A stretch of DNA of 32,000 bases from the NCBI GenBank assembly GCA_013378385.1, contig JACAFS010000001.1:11501-43500 (forward strand), given 5' to 3'. The translations under genes and the position numbers were made by a program. The notes under the pieces were generated by a model that did not search any database, was not told the origin of the DNA, and saw only the letters and a list, made by a program, of their open reading frames with translations. Positions 19,567 through 28,338 of the stretch are shown piece by piece; within the stretch, counting starts at the first letter, position 1; each line of letters begins with the position of its first letter. The DNA is from Nitrososphaerota archaeon (GTDB lineage Archaea > Thermoproteota > Nitrososphaeria > Nitrososphaerales > UBA57).

Positions 19567-20244
19567 TTATCTACTCTCATCAAATAACTCATTTAATACA
19601 GAAAAAGTCCTTGCTACATCTTTTGTTTTTACTACAATTATTGTATCTGTAAAACAACTAACTGTATCTTCTATATTTATTTGTCTTTTAGCAACCTGTC
19701 CATATATTGTAAATACAAATCCTGGTACTGAGATTACCTCTATTGGGCTATGTACAATTATTGCCGCTAAATCATTTGAATCTTCTAATATCTCTGATTT
19801 ATTGAATATCTTCAATAATTTTTCTCTAAGTCTTTCAGAATATATTATTGTTAATGCTGAAGTTGCTTCCGAAATCTGAATAAATTCTTCATTATTTTTT
19901 AATATTACATTTTGTATATTTTCTTGATTGCGATCATTCTTTTTAACCGATAATTTAGCAACACCAGTTCTTACATTTATATCACTTTTTGCAATAACAT
20001 CTGTAATTTCATTATTGATTGACGTATACTTTGGAACAATTCTTTTTACAGCTGTTATTATTGCATCTTCATTAACTTCTGAAATTCCCATTTTCTCAAT
20101 CTTGGGTTTTAGTAATCTTGCTATTCCACTAATATTAGCATAATCTCTAGCTATTGAATCTTGTATTCCTAAATCTGATTCTATTAAATTTCTTGTAATT
20201 CTTGCAACAGATTGATTTATCTGTTTCTGGTCATCTATAGCCAA
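19567..20244 (-). CDS. Hypothetical protein with an ACT-like C-terminal region; possible small-molecule-binding regulator
   Basis: The C-terminal LAAIIVHSPIEVISVPGFVFTIYGQVAKRQINIEDTVSCFTDTIIVVKTKDVARTFSVLNELF resembles ACT domains of aspartokinase-type regulators. The N-terminus (GIQDSIARDYANISGIARLL) is weakly HTH-like. Divergent from argG. Call is by pattern recognition only. Confidence 0.45.
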   Translation of the reverse strand: MAIDDQKQINQSVARITRNLIESDLGIQDSIARDYANISGIARLLKPKIEKMGISEVNEDAIITAVKRIVPKYTSINNEITDVIAKSDINVRTGVAKLSVKKNDRNQENIQNVILKNNEEFIQISEATSALTIIYSERLREKLLKIFNKSEILEDSNDLAAIIVHSPIEVISVPGFVFTIYGQVAKRQINIEDTVSCFTDTIIVVKTKDVARTFSVLNELFDESR

Positions 20245-20247
20245 TAA

Positions 20248-20276
20248 TGGTCAATTATGACCAAAAGATATTAAAA
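20248..20276. promoter_or_regulatory. Putative shared bidirectional promoter region: palindrome TGGTCAattaTGACCA (20248..20263) next to an A/T box ATATTAAAA (20268..20276)
   Basis: Perfect 6-bp inverted arms with a 4-nt spacer. The A/T box centre lies ~28 nt from the TTG of the minus-strand gene (20244) and ~30 nt from the argG ATG (20302), as expected for archaeal TATA boxes on leaderless or short-leader mRNAs. Confidence 0.3.
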
Positions 20277-20301: not shown

Positions 20302-21477
20302 ATGTCCAAAAAAGTAGTTTTAGCATTTTCTGGAGGACTTGATACCTCTATCTCAGTTAGTTGGCTAAAGAAAAAGCATAATCTTGACGTAATTACTGCT
20401 ATTGTTGATATTGGTCAAGATGAAAACTTTGACGAAATTGAAAAAAAGGCCTACTCAATTGGCGCATCAAAACATTGTACTATTGATGCCAAACAAGAAT
20501 TTATTAATAATTATATTTTCTCTGCAATAAAATCAAATGCCTTGTATCAGAATAAATATCCGTTGGCCACTGCTTTGGGTAGACCTCTTATTGCATACAA
20601 GCTAGTAGAAATTGCAAATCAAGAAAATACTAAAATCTTTTCTCATGGCTGTACGGGAAAAGGTAATGATCAAGCCAGATTCGATGTTACATTGAGATCT
20701 GTTATGCCCGACGCTAAAATTATTGCCCCAGTTAGAGATGAGAATATGAGCAGAGATGAAGAAATTCAATATGCAAAAGACCTTAACGTGTCCATTGAAA
20801 AGAAATCCCAATACAGCATTGACGAAAACTTGTGGGGTAGATCTATAGAAGGTGGAATTTTAGAAGATTCTTTCGAAGAACCTCCAAAAGATATTTACAA
20901 ATGGGTTAATGTAAACAATGACTTGGCTGATAGATACATAGAAATTGATTTTAATAATGGCATTCCAATTTCAATCGACGGTATTACTGATTCTCTGGAA
21001 ATGATTACTCATCTTAACGATGTTGCAGGAAAATATGGTATTGGAATTGTTGACCACATAGAAGATAGGCTTATGGGGATAAAATCAAGAGAAATATATG
21101 AAGCACCTGCTGCCACCGTACTTATTGAGGCTCATAAAGATCTAGAAAAATTAGTATTGACTAGAAATGAATTGGAAATAAAGTCCTTATTAGAACAAAA
21201 ATGGAGTTGGATGATTTATTCAGGATTATTTGTAGATCCATTGGTAAAAGCTATTAATTCATTTATTAATAAGACTCAAGAACGTGTTAATGGCACTGTT
21301 AGACTAAAACTTAGGAGTAATTCATTAACTGTGGTTGGCAGAAAATCTGAAAATTCTATTTATGATCAGAATCTTTCTTCGTATTCCTCTTCATCTGATT
21401 TCAATCAAACTTACTCTAAGGGTTTTATTGAAATCTGGGGACTCCAGTCTAAATTTAACGAAGGAGAGACAAAATGA
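20302..21477 (+). CDS. argG: Argininosuccinate synthase
   Basis: VVLAFSGGLDTS (PP-loop), HGCTGKGNDQARF, and DENLWGRS-type motifs. 391 aa. Confidence 0.95.
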   Translation: MSKKVVLAFSGGLDTSISVSWLKKKHNLDVITAIVDIGQDENFDEIEKKAYSIGASKHCTIDAKQEFINNYIFSAIKSNALYQNKYPLATALGRPLIAYKLVEIANQENTKIFSHGCTGKGNDQARFDVTLRSVMPDAKIIAPVRDENMSRDEEIQYAKDLNVSIEKKSQYSIDENLWGRSIEGGILEDSFEEPPKDIYKWVNVNNDLADRYIEIDFNNGIPISIDGITDSLEMITHLNDVAGKYGIGIVDHIEDRLMGIKSREIYEAPAATVLIEAHKDLEKLVLTRNELEIKSLLEQKWSWMIYSGLFVDPLVKAINSFINKTQERVNGTVRLKLRSNSLTVVGRKSENSIYDQNLSSYSSSSDFNQTYSKGFIEIWGLQSKFNEGETK

Positions 21478-22964
21478 CTAATGATATAGATATATTGAGA
21501 GGTAATAGACTCTCTAAGACCTCTGACTTAGCTTCTTCTTTTATTAGTTCTACCGATGAGGATTTACTGATCCTAGATCCTGTCAAAAAAATCAATATTG
21601 CACACATGCTTATGTTGGTGAAACAAAATATCCTTGATAAAAAAACTGCAAATAAATGCATTAAAACTCTAAAGTCAATTGACGATTCGTTTGAACTAGA
21701 TCCTGGCCTTGAGGACGTTCATATGAATGTTGAATCATTTGTAATTAATCGTATTGGTAGTGAAACCGGTGGACAACTTAATCTTGCCAAGAGTAGAAAC
21801 GATCAAGTTGCAACCGCAATCAGAATGACGACTCGTACATTTATCTTAAGTATATTGACCAGTATTCATGACTTGCAAAAGGTTCTTCTTAATCTAGCAA
21901 AAACACATACTGATTATCTTATGCCTTCTTTTACTCATCTCCAACATGCACAAATTATAACTCTTTCACATAATCTTCTTGCTCATTATGATTCATTATC
22001 TAGAGATGTAGACAGATTTCAAGAAACCTATGACAGAGTTAACAAATCTCCACAAGGTTCTGGTGCAATTGCCTCAGTAATTATTCATGTTGATAGAGAT
22101 TATATTGCTAAATTACTTGGTTTTAATGGCATTGTAGAAAATTCAATTGATGCCACCACTACTCGTGATTTTTGCATTGAATTATTGTCGAATCTTACGT
22201 TGTTAATGTTAAACATTGAGAAAATCGTTAATGAATTGGTCCTTTGGAGTACCTCTGAATTCTCATATGTTGAAATTTCTGATGAATTCAGTTCAACTAG
22301 TAGTATAATGCCTCAAAAAAAGAATCCTGTTATTGCCGAATTGATAAGATCTAAATCTTCGATTATTATCGGCGATCTTGTTGCGTCAATTGGCATAATT
22401 AAATCACTTACTCTAGGATATAGTATCGATATACAAGATTTAACTCCTAGATTATGGAATTCTATAAATAAATCATTGTCATCAGTTCAACTATTGTCTA
22501 ACATGCTGAATACCTGTAAATTTAACAAAGAGTCTATGTATGCTAATCTAGACGATACTATGATTGCTGCTGATTTAGCTAATTACCTTGCATCAAACTA
22601 TAATATTTCCTTCAGACAATCACATCATATTGTTGGAACTCTATCGAAGTCCTCAATTGATTCTAATACAAAATTATCTGAATTAGTAAAAACCGACATT
22701 GATAAAATAACTAAGAAAATAACTGGTAAAACAATTAAAGTAAATGTATCGGAAATTGATTCAATCTTTAATTATTCTAACAATGTTAATTCAAAAACTA
22801 CAAACGGTTCTCCTTCTAATTCCGAGAGTAATAGAATGATTAAACTAAGAACAGTACAACTTTCTAATTCATCTAAATTTATTAAAAAACAACAAAATCT
22901 ACTTACTAAATCTGAAATTCTTCTAGAAAAATCTATAAGAAATCTATCAGGAGGTGGAAATTAA
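21474..22964 (+). CDS. argH: Argininosuccinate lyase
   Basis: LAKSRNDQVATAIRM and SSTSSIMPQKKNP (fumarate-lyase signature). ATGA overlap with argG. Confidence 0.93.
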   Translation: MTNDIDILRGNRLSKTSDLASSFISSTDEDLLILDPVKKINIAHMLMLVKQNILDKKTANKCIKTLKSIDDSFELDPGLEDVHMNVESFVINRIGSETGGQLNLAKSRNDQVATAIRMTTRTFILSILTSIHDLQKVLLNLAKTHTDYLMPSFTHLQHAQIITLSHNLLAHYDSLSRDVDRFQETYDRVNKSPQGSGAIASVIIHVDRDYIAKLLGFNGIVENSIDATTTRDFCIELLSNLTLLMLNIEKIVNELVLWSTSEFSYVEISDEFSSTSSIMPQKKNPVIAELIRSKSSIIIGDLVASIGIIKSLTLGYSIDIQDLTPRLWNSINKSLSSVQLLSNMLNTCKFNKESMYANLDDTMIAADLANYLASNYNISFRQSHHIVGTLSKSSIDSNTKLSELVKTDIDKITKKITGKTIKVNVSEIDSIFNYSNNVNSKTTNGSPSNSESNRMIKLRTVQLSNSSKFIKKQQNLLTKSEILLEKSIRNLSGGGN

Positions 22965-23137
22965 TGGAGCAAAAATGTCAAGATTGTGATGCAACAATGC
23001 AGATTCTAGACGACGTTGTAATAGGAGAGATTATAAGTTGTCCTGATTGCGGTAACGAATTTGAAGTTAAGAAAATCGATTCAAATGCTGTTACATTATC
23101 GCCTGCAGAATCAGTTGGAGAAGATTGGGGAGAATAA
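22964..23137 (+). CDS. lysW: Amino-group carrier protein LysW/ArgW (57 aa, absent from the supplied ORF track)
   Basis: My translation is MEQKCQDCDATMQILDDVVIGEIISCPDCGNEFEVKKIDSNAVTLSPAESVGEDWGE. It has a CxxC...CxxC zinc ribbon and the diagnostic C-terminal EDWGE. The ATG shares its A with the argH TAA (TAATG). Stop falls 1 nt before the lysX ATG. Confidence 0.9.
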   Translation: MEQKCQDCDATMQILDDVVIGEIISCPDCGNEFEVKKIDSNAVTLSPAESVGEDWGE

Positions 23138-23138
23138 T

Positions 23139-24005
23139 ATGACCAATCGTATCAGTATTATCTACGATCGCGTGCGTTGGGAAGAAAAAGAAATTTTCAA
23201 TGCATTTGAGGAAAGAAATATCCCATTTAGCAAACATGATGCAAAAGCACTCGTATTGCGTAGTAATGACTCTGACGAATCAATTCAATCTTCGTTTGGC
23301 ACTTCTATAATTCAAAGATGCATTAGTCATTATCGTGGTATGCTTATTGCCCATTATTTAGAATCAAAAAACTGTTTAGTGGTTAATAGTTCTAACACAA
23401 GTAGAATATGCGGTAATAAATTCCTATCTACATTGAAATTTGAGGAATCTGGCATAAAAACTCCTCTTACTTTATTCAGTTTTTCCGATAAATCTGCCGA
23501 AGATTCTGTAGAAGAATTGGGTTATCCATCTGTCTTGAAGCCTATTGTAGGAAGTTGGGGAAGAGGCGTTGTAAAATTAAATGATAAAGATTCTGCTAAG
23601 GCTCTGATTGAAATGAGATATAATGACGATGGATTATTCTCGAAAATTTTTTATGTCCAACAACATATCAGTCGACCTCCAAGAGATATTAGGACGGTTG
23701 TTGTAGGAAATGAAGTTGTTGGTGCTGAATATCGTTATTCTTCTAATGATGATTGGAGGACTAACTTCTCACTTGGAGCAAAAATTGAGAATTGCCCTAT
23801 TACGAAGGAGTTGGAAGAAATTGTTCTTAAGGCATCAGACTCAGTTGGTGGCGGAATCCTTGGCGTTGATCTAATGGAGGGCGAAGACGGATTCTTAGTT
23901 CATGAAATTAATAATAATGTTGAGTTTAAAGGCGTTTCAAAATTCACCAAAGATAATATAGCATACAAAATTGTAGACTATATTGATCATATTTCAAAGA
24001 GGTAA
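23139..24005 (+). CDS. lysX: RimK/ATP-grasp ligase LysX/ArgX (attaches glutamate or 2-aminoadipate to LysW)
   Basis: ISIIYDRVRWEEKE, VLKPIVGSWGRGV, GVDLME...LVHEINNNVEF (ATP-grasp). I place the start at ATG 23139. The track extension to TTG 23061 would overlap lysW. Confidence 0.9.
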   Translation: MTNRISIIYDRVRWEEKEIFNAFEERNIPFSKHDAKALVLRSNDSDESIQSSFGTSIIQRCISHYRGMLIAHYLESKNCLVVNSSNTSRICGNKFLSTLKFEESGIKTPLTLFSFSDKSAEDSVEELGYPSVLKPIVGSWGRGVVKLNDKDSAKALIEMRYNDDGLFSKIFYVQQHISRPPRDIRTVVVGNEVVGAEYRYSSNDDWRTNFSLGAKIENCPITKELEEIVLKASDSVGGGILGVDLMEGEDGFLVHEINNNVEFKGVSKFTKDNIAYKIVDYIDHISKR

Positions 24006-24011
24006 TTTGTA

Positions 24012-25064
24012 ATGAAGGTTGGAGTAATTGGTGCATCGGGTTTTGTCGGAGGAGAACTATTGAGATTAATCATTAATCATCCTGAAGTTGAACTTTCTTT
24101 TGCAACTTCTAGACAGTACGATGGCCAATTTTTATATAAAATTCATCCTAATTTGAAGGGATTTACAGATGTCAAATTCTCATTATTTGATTCATCGAAG
24201 GTTGCTGATCAATGTGACCTTCTTTTTACTGCCGTTCCACATGGTAGTTCATATGAATTCATGAATGAACTTGTTAATTCTGGCGTAAAAATTGTTGACC
24301 TTAGTGCTGATTATAGACTTTCGAATCCAGATATGTATGATAAATGGTATGGTTTTACACATCCTCTACCTGACTTATTGAATTCATTTACGTTCGGTTT
24401 ACCTGAACTTCATAGGGATTCGATAAAATCAAGTAAGTTTACATCTACTCCTGGATGCACTGCTTTAACTTCGATTCTTGCGTTGGCGCCTTTGATTCAA
24501 AACAAAATAATAGATTCTAATAATATTATTATTGACTCAAAAGTTGGTTCATCTGGTGCTGGTGTAAAACCTACTATTGGTTCTCATCATGCTAATAGGT
24601 ATGGTGTTATCCGTCCATTCAAACCTTACGCACATAGACATACTGCTGAAATCGATCAAGAACTTTCGAATTTATCTGAAAACTCTGTAAATGTTTCACT
24701 GTCTGTTCATTCAGTAAATCTTGTTCGTGGTATATTATGTACTTCATACGCCTCTATTGATTCTGATATTACCGAAGTTGAAGTATGGAAAGCTTATAGG
24801 AAATTCTATTCTGACTCGCCTTTTATTAGATTTATTGGAGATAAGAAAGGTCTGTACAGATATCCTGATCCTAAACTACTTATTGGCTCCAATTTTTGTG
24901 ATATTGGATTTGCTTATGACAAATCTGCATCTAGACTTGTTGTTATGTCTTCATCAGATAATCTGATTAAGGGAGCTGCAGGAACTGCTATTCAAAATAT
25001 GAATCTTATGTCTGGTTTTGATGAAACTATAGGTTTATGGACTCCTGGAATACATCCAATGTGA
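24012..25064 (+). CDS. lysY: LysY/ArgC: [LysW]-aminoadipyl/glutamyl-phosphate reductase (N-acetyl-gamma-glutamyl-phosphate reductase family)
   Basis: KVGVIGASGFVGGELLRL (NAD(P)-binding), STPGCTALTSILALAPL (active-site Cys), SSSDNLIKGAAG. Confidence 0.9.
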   Translation: MKVGVIGASGFVGGELLRLIINHPEVELSFATSRQYDGQFLYKIHPNLKGFTDVKFSLFDSSKVADQCDLLFTAVPHGSSYEFMNELVNSGVKIVDLSADYRLSNPDMYDKWYGFTHPLPDLLNSFTFGLPELHRDSIKSSKFTSTPGCTALTSILALAPLIQNKIIDSNNIIIDSKVGSSGAGVKPTIGSHHANRYGVIRPFKPYAHRHTAEIDQELSNLSENSVNVSLSVHSVNLVRGILCTSYASIDSDITEVEVWKAYRKFYSDSPFIRFIGDKKGLYRYPDPKLLIGSNFCDIGFAYDKSASRLVVMSSSDNLIKGAAGTAIQNMNLMSGFDETIGLWTPGIHPM

Positions 25065-25069
25065 TTTCC

Positions 25070-25879
25070 ATGGTTACAATAGTAAAAATCGGTGGAAGTC
25101 TACATAGTAAAGGATTGACAAAAAATTTATTTGAGGATATTAAAAATTTCTCTAAAACTGAGTCATTGGTTGTCGTTCATGGAGGTGGAAACACAGTAAC
25201 TGAAATTGCAGAAAAACTAGGTAAGAAACAAGAATTCATTGTTTCTCCATCTGGTGTGAAAAGCAGATATACTGATAAAGAAACTGCATCAATCTTCATG
25301 ATGGTTATGTGTGGAAAAATTAATAAAGAAATTGTAGTATCATTACAATCTCTAGGTGTTAATGCAGTAGGATTAGGTGGCATCGATGGTAATATATTGA
25401 GTGCAATTCGTAAGAAAAGGCTCTTGATAATAGACGAAAGAAAAAGAAAACGTGCAATTGAAGGTGGATTTACGGGTAAAATAAAAAACGTTAATACTGA
25501 ATTGATTAATGACTTGATTAAATCAGGATACCTTCCAGTAATATCTCCAGTTGCTCTAGGCGATGAATTTGAAATTTTGAATGTTAATGGCGATCGTGCC
25601 GCATCTAATATTGCAACTCATCTAAATGCCGACCGTGTTATCTTCCTAACGGATGTTGATGGAATATCGTTGAATGACAAGCTTGTTACCAATCTAACTC
25701 TAGCAGAGTCTAAAGAAATTCTTCCAGACCTTGGATTTGGTATGGAACAAAAATTAATTTCTTGTATAGAATCCTTAGATCATGGTGTTAAAGAAGGAAT
25801 CATTGCTTCAGGGTTAGTTGACAACCCCATATCTAACGCTGTAAAACATTCCAATTGTACGGTGATTAATAATGAATGA
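25070..25879 (+). CDS. lysZ: LysZ/ArgB: [LysW]-aminoadipate/glutamate kinase (acetylglutamate kinase family)
   Basis: MVTIVKIGGS, VVVHGGGN, NVNGDRAA. Start is taken as ATG 25070. In-frame GTG 25061 (GTGA overlap with the lysY stop) is also possible, and track TTG 25037 is unlikely. Confidence 0.88.
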   Translation: MVTIVKIGGSLHSKGLTKNLFEDIKNFSKTESLVVVHGGGNTVTEIAEKLGKKQEFIVSPSGVKSRYTDKETASIFMMVMCGKINKEIVVSLQSLGVNAVGLGGIDGNILSAIRKKRLLIIDERKRKRAIEGGFTGKIKNVNTELINDLIKSGYLPVISPVALGDEFEILNVNGDRAASNIATHLNADRVIFLTDVDGISLNDKLVTNLTLAESKEILPDLGFGMEQKLISCIESLDHGVKEGIIASGLVDNPISNAVKHSNCTVINNE

Positions 25880-27056
25880 TGAAGAATTAATTAATTCAGA
25901 GGATAAATATCTGGCTCCTGTTTACCAAAAATTTCAAATTATCCTTGATAAAGGAAGTGGATGTTACGTATGGGACTCTTCAGGTAAAAAATATCTCGAC
26001 CTGATGGGGGGTTATGGCGTTTCATTATTAGGTCATTCAAATAAAACCATTGTTCAAGCCATAACTAATCAAGCAAATAAATTGACTAGTTGCCATGGTT
26101 CATTTTATAATGCGGAAAGGGCAAATGCTGTATTAAACATAAATAAAATTACACCAAAGAATCTTGATAATATATATTTATGTAATAGTGGGGCTGAAGC
26201 AGTTGAAGCTGCATTAAAATTATGTAAGAAACACTCGAAAAATAAAATTATTTCTATGTCTGGTTCATATCATGGTAAAACAATAGGTTCTTTGTCTCTA
26301 ACCTGGAATCCTAAATACAAAAAGTCTTTTCAACCTCTTCTTGACGATGTTGATTTCATCCCATTTGGGGATGCTGATTCATTGTCTAAAATTGATGATA
26401 ATACTGCTGCTGTCTTTTTAGAAGTTATTCAGGGTGAAAATGGCGTAAAATTTGCTTCAGTTGAGTATTTTAATAAATTACAAGAGCAATGTGATAAACA
26501 TAATGTACTGTTAGTCGTTGATGAGATTCAAACAGGTCTTGGAAGAACTGGTAAAATGTGGGCTCATGAGCACTATGATTTGAAACCAGACATTTTATGT
26601 ATTGGAAAAGGATTGGCCGGGGGAATGCCTGTCGGAGCAATGATTTCAAGAAGCGACATGACAAATTTCTCTCTTGGCGAACACACTACTACATTTGGTG
26701 GTAATCCTTTGACCTCTTCTGCAATCAATGCATCTATTGAGTATATCTTACAAGAAAATATAATCGATAATGCAGAAAAAACTGGTCAAATATTTCTTAA
26801 TGGGCTTGAAGAACTTAAATCAAAATATGATTCTATTCGTGATGTTCGTGGACTTGGATTGATGATTGCTATAGAATCAAAATTCCCAATCAAAGATATA
26901 TTATTTGATGGATTGAATAACGGCCTGATTATGCTATATTCTGGTAGAACTATATTGAGATTTTTACCTTCGTTAACATTGAATGAATCCCAAGTTGCTT
27001 CATCTCTACAAATTCTAGATAAGTTATTTCAAAATTCTCAGAAAAAGGTAAAATGA
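25872..27056 (+). CDS. lysJ: LysJ/ArgD: class III PLP aminotransferase (acetylornithine aminotransferase family)
   Basis: NSGAEAVEAALK, LLVVDEIQTGLGRTGKMWAHEHY, CIGKGLAGGMPVGA (PLP Lys), TFGGNPL. 8-nt overlap with lysZ. Confidence 0.9.
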   Translation: MNDEELINSEDKYLAPVYQKFQIILDKGSGCYVWDSSGKKYLDLMGGYGVSLLGHSNKTIVQAITNQANKLTSCHGSFYNAERANAVLNINKITPKNLDNIYLCNSGAEAVEAALKLCKKHSKNKIISMSGSYHGKTIGSLSLTWNPKYKKSFQPLLDDVDFIPFGDADSLSKIDDNTAAVFLEVIQGENGVKFASVEYFNKLQEQCDKHNVLLVVDEIQTGLGRTGKMWAHEHYDLKPDILCIGKGLAGGMPVGAMISRSDMTNFSLGEHTTTFGGNPLTSSAINASIEYILQENIIDNAEKTGQIFLNGLEELKSKYDSIRDVRGLGLMIAIESKFPIKDILFDGLNNGLIMLYSGRTILRFLPSLTLNESQVASSLQILDKLFQNSQKKVK

Positions 27057-27057
27057 T

Positions 27058-28338
27058 ATGGACGATATCGATAAAACTATAATAAAAATTCTCACAAAAG
27101 ATTCTAGAACTCCTAATACTGAAATTGCTCAACAAGTAAAACTATCTGAGTCTAGTGTAAGAGCTCGTATTGATAAACTTGTTTCTTCAGGCGCAATAAA
27201 AAATTTTACTATTACTCTGAGCGATAAACATCTTACACTATTGGAAAACTCACTAAAAATTTACTCTCCTTCTGGTCAAGAAAAACAATTCTCCGATTTC
27301 TTATTCGACACATTGAATAATTCTGGATTTACTCATGTACGTCGTGATTCCGCTAATAATGTATATGGTGAAATTGGTGAAGGTTCTCCTACTCTTTTAT
27401 TATGTGGGCACATGGATACTGTTCCCGGTCTGATTAATGTAGAAATCAAAGATCATGCAATCTATGGTAGAGGGGCATCTGACGCTAAATCTTCTTTAAT
27501 ATCTATGCTTATAGCGGCTTCTTCATTCAAAGATAAATTAAAATCTGGAAGAATAATCTTTTCTGCAGTTACTGATGAGGAAGGCACAGGTTTAGGAATT
27601 AGAGAGTTACTTAAAGATGGACTGAAAGAACAACCTGATTGTGCTATCTTTGGGGAACCTAGTGGAATAGATAAAATTACAGTTGGATACAAAGGTAGAT
27701 TTTCTGTTAAATTTACTTGTGAAACCCCTACCGTACATGCTAGTGCACCCTGGATGTCTTCTAACGCAATTGAATTATTATTCATATTATGGAACGATAT
27801 CAAAACTAAACTTCAAACTAATGAAGATAATCGTTATAAACAGATTACTTCGTGTTTGACCCAAATTAATGGAGGAAATGCCGATAATGTAATGCCTGGT
27901 AGTTGTAACTTGATGTGTGATATTCGTTATCCTTTTAATTATAATCCTGATCAAATAACTAACAAAATCGCCGACATCATATCTAATTTTAATAAAAAAT
28001 ATTCTATTGAAGATAATGTGAAATCTACCTTTGCTTATGAAATTATTGACTCTACTCCTGCTTTTGAATGTTCTAAATCCTCAGTTGTTAGCCGCTCTGT
28101 AAGCCGAGCTATAATCAAAAAACTCAATTCTAAGCCTCAATTTGTACATAAAACTGGCACTGGTGATATGAATCTTCTTGGAAATAAGATGAATATACCC
28201 GTACTCACTTATGGACCCGGAAATCCTCATCTATCTCATACTTCTAATGAACATATTATGATTGATGAGTTCCTTACGTCAATTGATATATATCAAAATT
28301 CAATTGAAAATGTTTTCAATCTTATCCAAAGAATTTAA
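27058..28338 (+). CDS. lysK: LysK/ArgE M20 metallohydrolase ([LysW]-lysine/ornithine hydrolase family) with an N-terminal AsnC/Lrp-type helix-turn-helix domain fused in frame
   Basis: Residues 1-56, MDDIDKTIIKILTKDSRTPNTEIAQQVKLSESSVRARIDKLVSSGAIKNFTITL, match the Lrp/AsnC HTH. From ~residue 60 the protein reads LLENSLKIYSPSGQEKQFSDFL, LLLCGHMDTVPG, YGRGASDAKS and TDEEGTG (M20/ArgE/LysK). 426 aa, about 60-70 aa longer than I expect for stand-alone LysK (from memory). No stop separates the two parts. Confidence 0.85.
   Translation: MDDIDKTIIKILTKDSRTPNTEIAQQVKLSESSVRARIDKLVSSGAIKNFTITLSDKHLTLLENSLKIYSPSGQEKQFSDFLFDTLNNSGFTHVRRDSANNVYGEIGEGSPTLLLCGHMDTVPGLINVEIKDHAIYGRGASDAKSSLISMLIAASSFKDKLKSGRIIFSAVTDEEGTGLGIRELLKDGLKEQPDCAIFGEPSGIDKITVGYKGRFSVKFTCETPTVHASAPWMSSNAIELLFILWNDIKTKLQTNEDNRYKQITSCLTQINGGNADNVMPGSCNLMCDIRYPFNYNPDQITNKIADIISNFNKKYSIEDNVKSTFAYEIIDSTPAFECSKSSVVSRSVSRAIIKKLNSKPQFVHKTGTGDMNLLGNKMNIPVLTYGPGNPHLSHTSNEHIMIDEFLTSIDIYQNSIENVFNLIQRI

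Follow-up and report, generated by a model that had tools for sequence, protein, structure and literature searches.

An Lrp-type DNA-binding domain fused to the hydrolase LysK in a clade of marine Nitrososphaerales: a putative RAM-less regulator of its own operon

Lrp/AsnC proteins are the most common regulators of archaea, and are considered unable to dimerise or to sense without their RAM domain. LysM of Sulfolobus solfataricus and S. acidocaldarius, a protein of this type encoded within the LysW-pathway gene cluster, is an activator of lysWXJK; it binds a semi-palindrome located 11 bp upstream of the TFB-recognition element (BRE) and TATA box of lysW, with a weaker site 21 bp away, and thereby activates transcription (PMC3597687). 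Lrp proteins need the RAM domain in order to dimerise, and a dimer is the smallest form of them that binds DNA (PMC2995911). A second described protein that links an Lrp to lysine is the lysine-responsive FL11 (PH1519) of Pyrococcus sp. OT3 (PDB 2e1c, 2zny), which is composed of a helix-turn-helix (HTH) and a RAM domain and forms octamers and cylinders. On the side of the enzymes, LysK of Thermus thermophilus (PDB 5xoy), which stands beside the ArgE/DapE M20 deacylases, is the product of the last gene of the LysW pathway. Pathway enzymes carrying an N-terminal DNA-binding domain and encoded among the genes of their own pathway are also known, namely the archaeal riboflavin kinase RbkR with its winged HTH (PMC5397151) and the bacterial BirA, PutA and NadR, in all of which the ligand state of the enzyme controls DNA binding. 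Here we describe a gene in which these two themes meet, an AsnC/Lrp-type HTH fused in frame to LysK, found in a stretch of 32,000 nt from a Nitrososphaerota archaeon (assembly GCA_013378385.1, contig JACAFS010000001.1, positions 11,501 to 43,500 of the forward strand), which is referred to as the window. A literature search found no description of an Lrp HTH fused to LysK or to any other M20 enzyme.

The fusion gene is an open reading frame (ORF) of 426 amino acids (aa) at 27058..28338 on the forward strand, without a stop codon between the HTH and the LysK part. It can be divided into the following three sections, for which G007 denotes the one species of the genus that lacks the fusion and dN/dS the ratio of non-synonymous to synonymous substitution rates.

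27058..27201, forward strand: AsnC/Lrp-type HTH domain (aa 1-48), from Pfam, predicted helices, identity to the HTH of the G007 Lrp, and dN/dS
27202..27216, forward strand: what is left of the Lrp hinge (aa 49-53, NFTIT), up to the deletion junction between T53 and L54, from alignment with the Lrp and LysK of G007
27217..28338, forward strand: LysK part (aa 54-426 and the stop codon), an M20 [LysW]-lysine/ornithine hydrolase with catalytic and dimerisation domains and without a start codon of its own, from TIGR01902, PDB 5xoy and Foldseek

The N-terminal part was recognised by the Pfam models HTH_AsnC-type (PF13404; aa 1-41, E 1.6e-14, 53.8 bits against a cut-off of 27) and HTH_24 (aa 1-48), and its best matches among solved structures, over aa 1-59, were LrpA (1i1g, the top match) and FL11, with E-values from 5e-9 to 2e-7. 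The remainder of the protein matched Peptidase_M20 (aa 114-417), M20_dimer (PF07687; aa 210-315, E 1.4e-15) and the N-acetyl-ornithine/lysine deacetylase model TIGR01902 (aa 61-419, 271.9 bits against a cut-off of 163.1). The second NCBIfam match, the [LysW]-lysine hydrolase equivalog NF003367, scored 261.5 bits and thus below its cut-off of 363, as is expected for a distant archaeal orthologue. T. thermophilus LysK was matched over aa 61-418 (E 7.8e-42), and a Foldseek search with the AlphaFold2 model gave a template modelling score of 0.90 to 5xoy_B. The model as a whole (predicted local distance difference test, pLDDT, 89) consists of a three-helix HTH (helices at aa 3-14, 20-27 and 31-44), a low-confidence tether (aa 45-54, with pLDDT <50 at aa 49-54) and a confident LysK body. 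The metal-binding and catalytic residues H118, D120, D142, E174, E175, E200 and H394 are invariant among 59 aligned homologues. The LysK part is complete, with its catalytic residues intact. The subfamily model, the solved LysK structure, the di-metal ligands, the M20 dimerisation domain and the genomic association with lys genes all place the fusion in the LysK/M20 family, where it shares fold, metal and catalytic residues, dimerisation domain and position in the pathway's gene order with Thermus LysK, and differs from it by about 53 additional N-terminal residues that form an independent domain of the DNA-binding type. A Pfam search found no AsnC_trans_reg (RAM, PF01037) domain in the ORF, the residues after aa 53 being LysK; with an HTH and no RAM domain, the fusion does not count as a full member of the Lrp family. 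These analyses confirm the in-frame fusion of an Lrp HTH to a full LysK, with no RAM domain, that a preliminary description of the window had read from its ORFs. The same description had assigned about 56 residues to the HTH, and it is the boundary that needs correction, FTITL being the hinge remnant and the LysK-derived part beginning at about L54 (nt 27217).

The same uninterrupted frame was found in six further species-level genomes. The fusion is also present on a 102.6-kb JGI metagenome contig (Ga0315335_000637) and on a Logan contig, for which gene callers give one gene of 417 aa, and in 17-18 protein clusters that draw on assemblies of ENA, JGI, Tara and Logan and of which some have 76-106 member sequences. 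Because the same frame recurs in independent genomes, contigs and protein clusters, the fusion is not an assembly artefact, and a stop codon or frameshift between the domains occurs in none of the six genomes, two metagenome contigs and 17-18 clusters. Its distribution among relatives, which the preliminary description had proposed to survey, is that of a single clade comprising seven of the eight species of the genus and 18 metagenomic clusters. Outside this clade no fusion was found: a search confined to the HTH region, covering the 234-745 aa proteins of a 5.8e9-protein collection, returned only the 18 clusters of the clade, and about 300 other genomes of the class lack the fusion. In a library of 1.84e9 representatives, none of the best 150 matches covered both halves and none had an E-value under 1e-30; long proteins of this library that matched along two stretches are probably, we assume, tandem Lrp-like proteins. 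Apparent N-terminal extensions in other genomes, where matches started from about residue 20 of the query, were rejected as read-through from a same-frame lysX across its stop codon.

The relatives of the window's organism also preserve the arrangement from which the fusion came. The GTDB family (f1) contains 15 species in five genera, and the genus of the window (g1) contains eight of these species. Seven of the eight gave a full-length match (query residues 1-426), and in G007, the eighth species, as in all other genera of the family, the match starts at about residue 50. All eight unfused genomes of the family have a full-length Lrp gene, encoding 137-148 aa, directly upstream of lysK; the products contain both the HTH_AsnC-type and the AsnC_trans_reg (RAM) domain, and the gene is sited between lysJ and lysK wherever the context is known. 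Between the fused HTH and that of the G007 Lrp the identity is 64-68%, in an alignment that ends at the hinge. At the junction the fusion reads FTIT/LSDKHLTLLEN, where the G007 Lrp has YTIDTKYNAP and the G007 LysK has MIV/LSKQFVSLLES. This comparison indicates that the fusion was made by one in-frame deletion of about 290 nt, which took about 88 RAM codons, the stop codon, a 17-nt spacer and lysK codons 1 to 3. In a maximum-likelihood tree of LysK, the seven fused sequences form one clade (support 100/99) with the unfused G007 as its sister. Since the fused sequences form one clade, the fusion arose once, in the ancestor of seven of the eight species of the genus. Homologues that encode the two parts separately beside a full-length Lrp, which the preliminary description had named as a possible refutation if they proved consistent, do exist, though only in the outgroups; they represent the ancestral state and leave the fusion itself standing.

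Relocation of the RAM domain, instead of its loss, was considered and rejected. A tblastn search with the G007 RAM domain found no match in the whole genome of the window (G000; about 1 Mb, 96% complete), and three stand-alone RAM ORFs present there are unrelated to it. These ORFs encode 75-84 aa and lie at C45:11857-12060 (L047), C75:2946-3155 (L050) and C90:1657-1827 (L051); the RAM matches in the genome are all on other contigs than the fusion. They are reminiscent of the demi-FFRPs, the stand-alone RAM proteins of archaea (PMC2995911; FFRP, feast/famine regulatory protein), in which the halves of Lrp are likewise apart. Unlike the fusion, however, demi-FFRPs retain the opposite half, RAM without HTH, and those found here are not detectably related to the deleted RAM. 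Full-length Lrp genes number only two or three in this genome; two others besides the fusion are likewise unrelated to the deleted RAM, and no other LysM-like Lrp was found.

The lost regulator can be traced further. In other families of the class, Lrp genes whose products are 45-48% identical to the Lrp of G002, a member of a sister genus, occur in or near the lysW-lysX-lysK cluster, and the Lrps of G002 and of G299, from another family, carry the contact pattern F24 S34 E35 A36 A37 R39. This pattern is tabulated for Sulfolobus LysM (Table 4 of PMC2715240). Because the G002 and G299 Lrps carry the LysM contact pattern, the ancestor of the fused HTH is taken to be a LysM orthologue; the fusion still occupies the slot of that group in the lys cluster and no longer has its lysine-responsive RAM pocket. 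To the Sulfolobus precedent invoked in the preliminary description this adds an origin, the HTH being the remainder of an operon-encoded LysM orthologue after deletion of the RAM domain. FL11 was the best solved match of the unfused G007 Lrp over its full length (E 1.2e-13), and its HTH is also matched by that of the fusion (E about 2e-7), which keeps only the equivalents of FL11 residues of about 5-57. Compared with LysM, the fusion lacks the RAM domain and hence the lysine pocket and the dimer/octamer interface of Lrp, is covalently joined to LysK, and has the contact residues N24, S/A/G36 and S37.

After the loss of its sensor domain, the HTH has not decayed. Within the fused clade its dN/dS is 0.03-0.16 at a near-saturated dS of 0.6-1.2, its amino-acid identity is 81-96%, compared with 75-84% for the LysK part, and neutrality was rejected in simple binomial tests with p from 2e-5 to 7e-8. 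No frameshift or truncation of the HTH was seen in the seven species and 18 metagenomic clusters, and the linker is the only variable part. These rates indicate that purifying selection acts on the 52-residue HTH no less strongly than on the enzyme. When the DNA-contact residues were mapped from the crystal structure of FL11 with DNA (PMC2715240), the residues at FL11 positions 24, 34, 35, 37 and 39 (here N20, S30, E31, S33 and R35) proved invariant in seven genomes and 17 metagenomic clusters, and all five are identical in the unfused G007. The sixth contact position, FL11 36, varies between S, A and G in the fused sequences.

In one fused species, G006, a 6-residue linker insertion (within …GDDQPLYDYY…) lies exactly at the old deletion junction (L010, compared with window positions 27202-27234). 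The HTH of this species is the most diverged of the fused clade, with a dN/dS of up to 0.25 against close relatives, and here constraint may be relaxing or the tether may be being retuned. An internal TTG (L61), from which the preliminary description suspected that a shorter LysK might also be made, was rejected as a start, as the codon is TTA or CTC in other species. Across the fused species no conserved internal start codon was found near the junction, and LysK can for this reason be made only as the fusion.

The archaeal amoA model found nothing in any of four genomes of the window's family and was matched in all 11 genomes from four sister families of ammonia oxidisers; because the model finds nothing in four of four family genomes, the organism is probably not an ammonia oxidiser. 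Genome sizes are 0.8-1.0 Mb in the genus of the window and 1.3-1.9 Mb in sister genera, and the fusion sequences come from marine metagenomes, including Tara. The lineage thus fits the description of the 'heterotrophic marine Thaumarchaeota' with small genomes (PMC7300363), a name that is applied here by likeness only.

The fusion is the last gene of an eight-gene operon, argG-argH-lysW-lysX-lysY-lysZ-lysJ-(HTH-lysK). The same order was found in seven genomes of the genus, in G002 and on the JGI contig, and the sole other M20 paralogue in the genome is 31% identical and lies on another contig. The features of the operon and of its upstream region are as follows.

19567..20244, reverse strand: divergent gene whose 225-aa product has a helical domain at the N-terminus and ACT domains in tandem, from Pfam ACT_7, AlphaFold2 and Foldseek
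20228..20243, no strand assigned: degenerate second box TGGTCATCTATAGCCA with 2 mismatches, its centre 20 bp from that of the main box; overlaps the first codons of the divergent ACT gene
20248..20263, no strand assigned: perfect 6-4-6 palindrome TGGTCAATTATGACCA (TGGTCA-N4-TGACCA), a candidate operator, unique in the genome, conserved, and directly upstream of the BRE/TATA of argG
20264..20276, forward strand: A-rich BRE-like stretch and TATA-like box (AAAG ATATTAAAA), about 30 nt before the ATG of argG and conserved among the aligned spacers
20302..27056, forward strand: argG, argH, lysW, lysX, lysY, lysZ and lysJ, tightly packed, from ORFs and Pfam; ends 1 nt before the fusion gene

The arrangement of these genes differs in more distant relatives. 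In genus g5 (G012-G014), which has larger genomes, the lrp-lysK pair is on a different contig from the ACT-argG pair (L044-L046, L059). The genes from argG to lysJ were not found within 9 kb upstream of the lrp-lysK pair in this genus, from which it follows that its operon is split. A conserved stretch, CAATATCTTTTTCACCTCCACA, precedes lrp in g5, and the TGACCA palindrome was not found in the region upstream of the separate lrp-lysK pair. In other families (G088, L052; G022, L053; G299, L054; G238, L055), lysK directly follows lysX in the order lysW-lysX-lysK, and in some of these genomes the two genes share a frame, giving a read-through frame of 667-690 aa. A LysM-like Lrp is encoded 0.1-1.3 kb upstream of lysW in three of these four (G088, G022 and G299), and none was found in the stretch of G238. 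An lrp gene adjoining lysK is specific to family f1.

From its position, the BRE/TATA-like element at 20264..20276 is likely the promoter of the eight-gene operon. The palindrome beside it lies in the 57-nt spacer between argG and the divergent gene. No other site in the 1-Mb genome matches it with 0-1 mismatch, and about 0.03 would be expected by chance, as estimated from base composition. In an alignment of the spacer from six fused species and the unfused G007, 28 of the 33 positions in the palindrome and BRE/TATA are invariant, compared with 8 of 24 elsewhere in the spacer; the conservation of the degenerate box is confounded by coding constraint. With a (semi-)palindrome just upstream of the BRE/TATA and a weaker second site about 20 bp away, the layout is closely parallel to that of the Sulfolobus LysM operator. 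Some gene calls hide this intergenic site: on the JGI contig (L057, 2191-3420) argG has been called from an ATG that lies within the palindrome, giving 409 aa as compared with 391. This ATG shares the frame of argG only in the G008-like lineage, where the spacer is shorter by 1 nt, and is out of frame in the window. A scan for sigma-70 promoters and terminators was set aside, as it is not meaningful for an archaeon.

Taken together, a reading to which we give about an even chance of being correct is that the fusion protein is a RAM-less LysM derivative that is still a transcription factor of its own argG-argH-lysWXYZJ-K operon, uses the LysK dimer as its scaffold and binds the palindrome. The M20 dimerisation domain of LysK would replace the RAM domain in pairing two HTHs, each on a flexible tether of about 10 residues, and the resulting dimer would bind TGGTCA-N4-TGACCA, and perhaps also the degenerate box 20 bp away, beside the BRE/TATA of argG. 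There the protein would act on the operon promoter in the manner of LysM; Sulfolobus LysM and Ptr2 activate from that position by helping TBP/TFB. LysK may even have taken over both tasks of the RAM domain, the pairing of the HTHs and the sensing of the end product or of the LysW-bound substrate through the open/closed motion of the M20 fold, an extension that we consider possible though doubtful. M20 enzymes open and close, and Thermus LysK has reportedly been crystallised with lysine bound (5xoy). A ligand-tuned trigger enzyme and a ligand-blind activator on which the promoter depends seem about equally likely. The preliminary description had proposed such a trigger enzyme, with the catalytic domain autoregulating the operon in place of the RAM sensor, and four results fit it: the selection on the HTH, its unchanged contact residues, the dimerisation domain of M20 and the conserved, unique palindrome. 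None of these shows DNA binding or sensing, and the palindrome may belong to the ACT protein.

Several observations weigh against autoregulation through this palindrome, and some of them point to another factor as its reader. The FFRP contact code for proteins with E35 and R39 calls for CG at arm positions c and d and a 3-bp centre (PMC2715240), and the palindrome, with its GGTCA arms and 4-bp centre, departs both from this code and from the 13-15 bp abcde-WWW-edcba form to which FFRP dimers bind, as it does from the TTCGA-WWW-TCGAA box of LysM. Boxes of the form CGA-WWW-TCG occur 18 times in the genome, none of them near the operon; a canonical FFRP box at the operon was accordingly rejected, and the contact code of Yokoyama does not identify the palindrome as the site of the fused HTH. 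In addition, the proximal half-site TGACCA-AAAA is conserved in G002, G012 and G299, where the distal half is degenerate, and is thus kept in genera whose Lrp contact residues differ (F24/A36/A37); it may be part of the BRE or of the site of another factor. The geometry is also demanding, as in M20 dimers such as DapE and CPG2 the catalytic domains, and hence the N-termini, are at opposite ends, and two HTHs on 10-residue tethers may reach adjacent major grooves only with difficulty; they might instead sit one on each of the two boxes 20 bp apart, and not on both halves of a single box. Finally, the ACT protein co-occurs with the palindrome site in every genome examined, protein and TGACCA-containing box standing together at the argG promoter in the genus of the window, G002, G012 and G299, and its gene is divergent from argG in G012 and G299 as well; it was not found in three complete genomes of the amoA-bearing families f2 and f4. 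Its AlphaFold2 model shows three to five N-terminal helices, among them a three-helix region, with invariant basic residues. The palindrome could hence be the operator of another factor, most likely this amino-acid-sensing protein, with the fused HTH binding elsewhere or non-specifically, for instance in nucleoid tethering, and exerting no control over the operon. We regard this as unlikely, since neither Pfam nor a PDB sequence search detected an HTH or other DNA-binding family in the ACT protein, and since a regulator encoded inside the operon that it controls is the classical arrangement of LysM. The best fold matches of the ACT protein, which Foldseek found for the ACT tandem only, are the regulatory (beta) subunits of aspartokinase. 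LysZ has an amino-acid-kinase fold without ACT domains, and the two together could resemble a split aspartokinase; a role as allosteric partner of LysZ is at least as plausible as one at the DNA, and the protein could be either the transcription factor for the palindrome or an allosteric subunit of LysZ. Because of the mismatch with the contact code, the half-site in genera with other contact residues and the rival claim of the ACT protein, the link between HTH and palindrome is one that we infer.

The remaining explanations concern the HTH itself. It could be functional and yet no longer read DNA, serving to dock LysW, to stabilise or solubilise LysK, or to contact another enzyme of the pathway; purifying selection shows that the peptide matters and not what it is for, and the hinge remnant FTITL is conserved as well. 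Loss of the RAM domain removed the canonical Lrp dimer that is normally needed for DNA binding (PMC2995911), and LysW is, from its sequence, strongly acidic. The net charge of the HTH is, however, only about +2, no HTH-like domain was found by Pfam on LysX, LysY, LysZ or LysJ in the window or on the JGI contig, and the unfused LysK of the sister species and of about 300 other genomes works without one. Moreover, the conserved residues are exactly the DNA-contact set of the Lrp ancestor, and in the AlphaFold2 model the HTH is a separate domain on its tether that does not pack on LysK. A role away from DNA therefore strikes us as rather improbable, and the docking of LysW that the preliminary description had offered as its second hypothesis finds no specific support, given the low charge, the other LysW-dependent enzymes without such a domain and the retained DNA-reading residues. 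If the HTH did have a role of this kind, it would be an unusual exaptation of a DNA-binding fold. Another alternative treats the HTH as neutral, left behind by a deletion in the course of streamlining and kept only to supply lysK with a start codon and translational coupling. The reduced genomes of the genus agree with this, as does the fact that the deletion took the own start of lysK, so that upstream coding sequence is needed. Such an origin does not account for synonymous sites near saturation beside rare amino-acid changes, for an HTH better conserved than the enzyme it precedes, or for a reading frame that is intact in all seven species and 18 clusters with only the linker varying, and we consider a neutral leftover very improbable indeed.

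Under autoregulation by a LysK-borne HTH, the fusion would join the enzymes that carry a DNA-binding domain and an intact catalytic domain in one polypeptide, a combination that is present here in sequence and model. It differs from RbkR, BirA, PutA and NadR in the class of the HTH (Lrp/AsnC) and of the enzyme (M20 hydrolase), and from known trigger enzymes in being recent, in having arisen by deletion of the regulator's own sensor domain and in that its function is putative.

In this lineage the RAM domain has been lost naturally, yet the orphan HTH is under strong selection on a dimeric enzyme, and because selection has kept it intact, the enzyme may control its own operon. The unfused sister species G007 provides a built-in control, which makes this a tractable case of the passage from a one-component regulator to an enzyme-regulator fusion during genome streamlining. 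The case raises the questions of whether an unrelated dimeric scaffold can replace the RAM domain, and of whether regulation has been lost, frozen in the "on" state or rewired to the ligands of the enzyme. It also bears on the control of amino-acid pathways in uncultured deep-ocean Nitrososphaerales. If LysK indeed both senses and pairs the HTHs, the last enzyme of lysine and arginine synthesis would directly set the transcription of its own operon, and the fusion would be the first Lrp-derived trigger enzyme, and one whose unfused state survives in a sister species within the genus.

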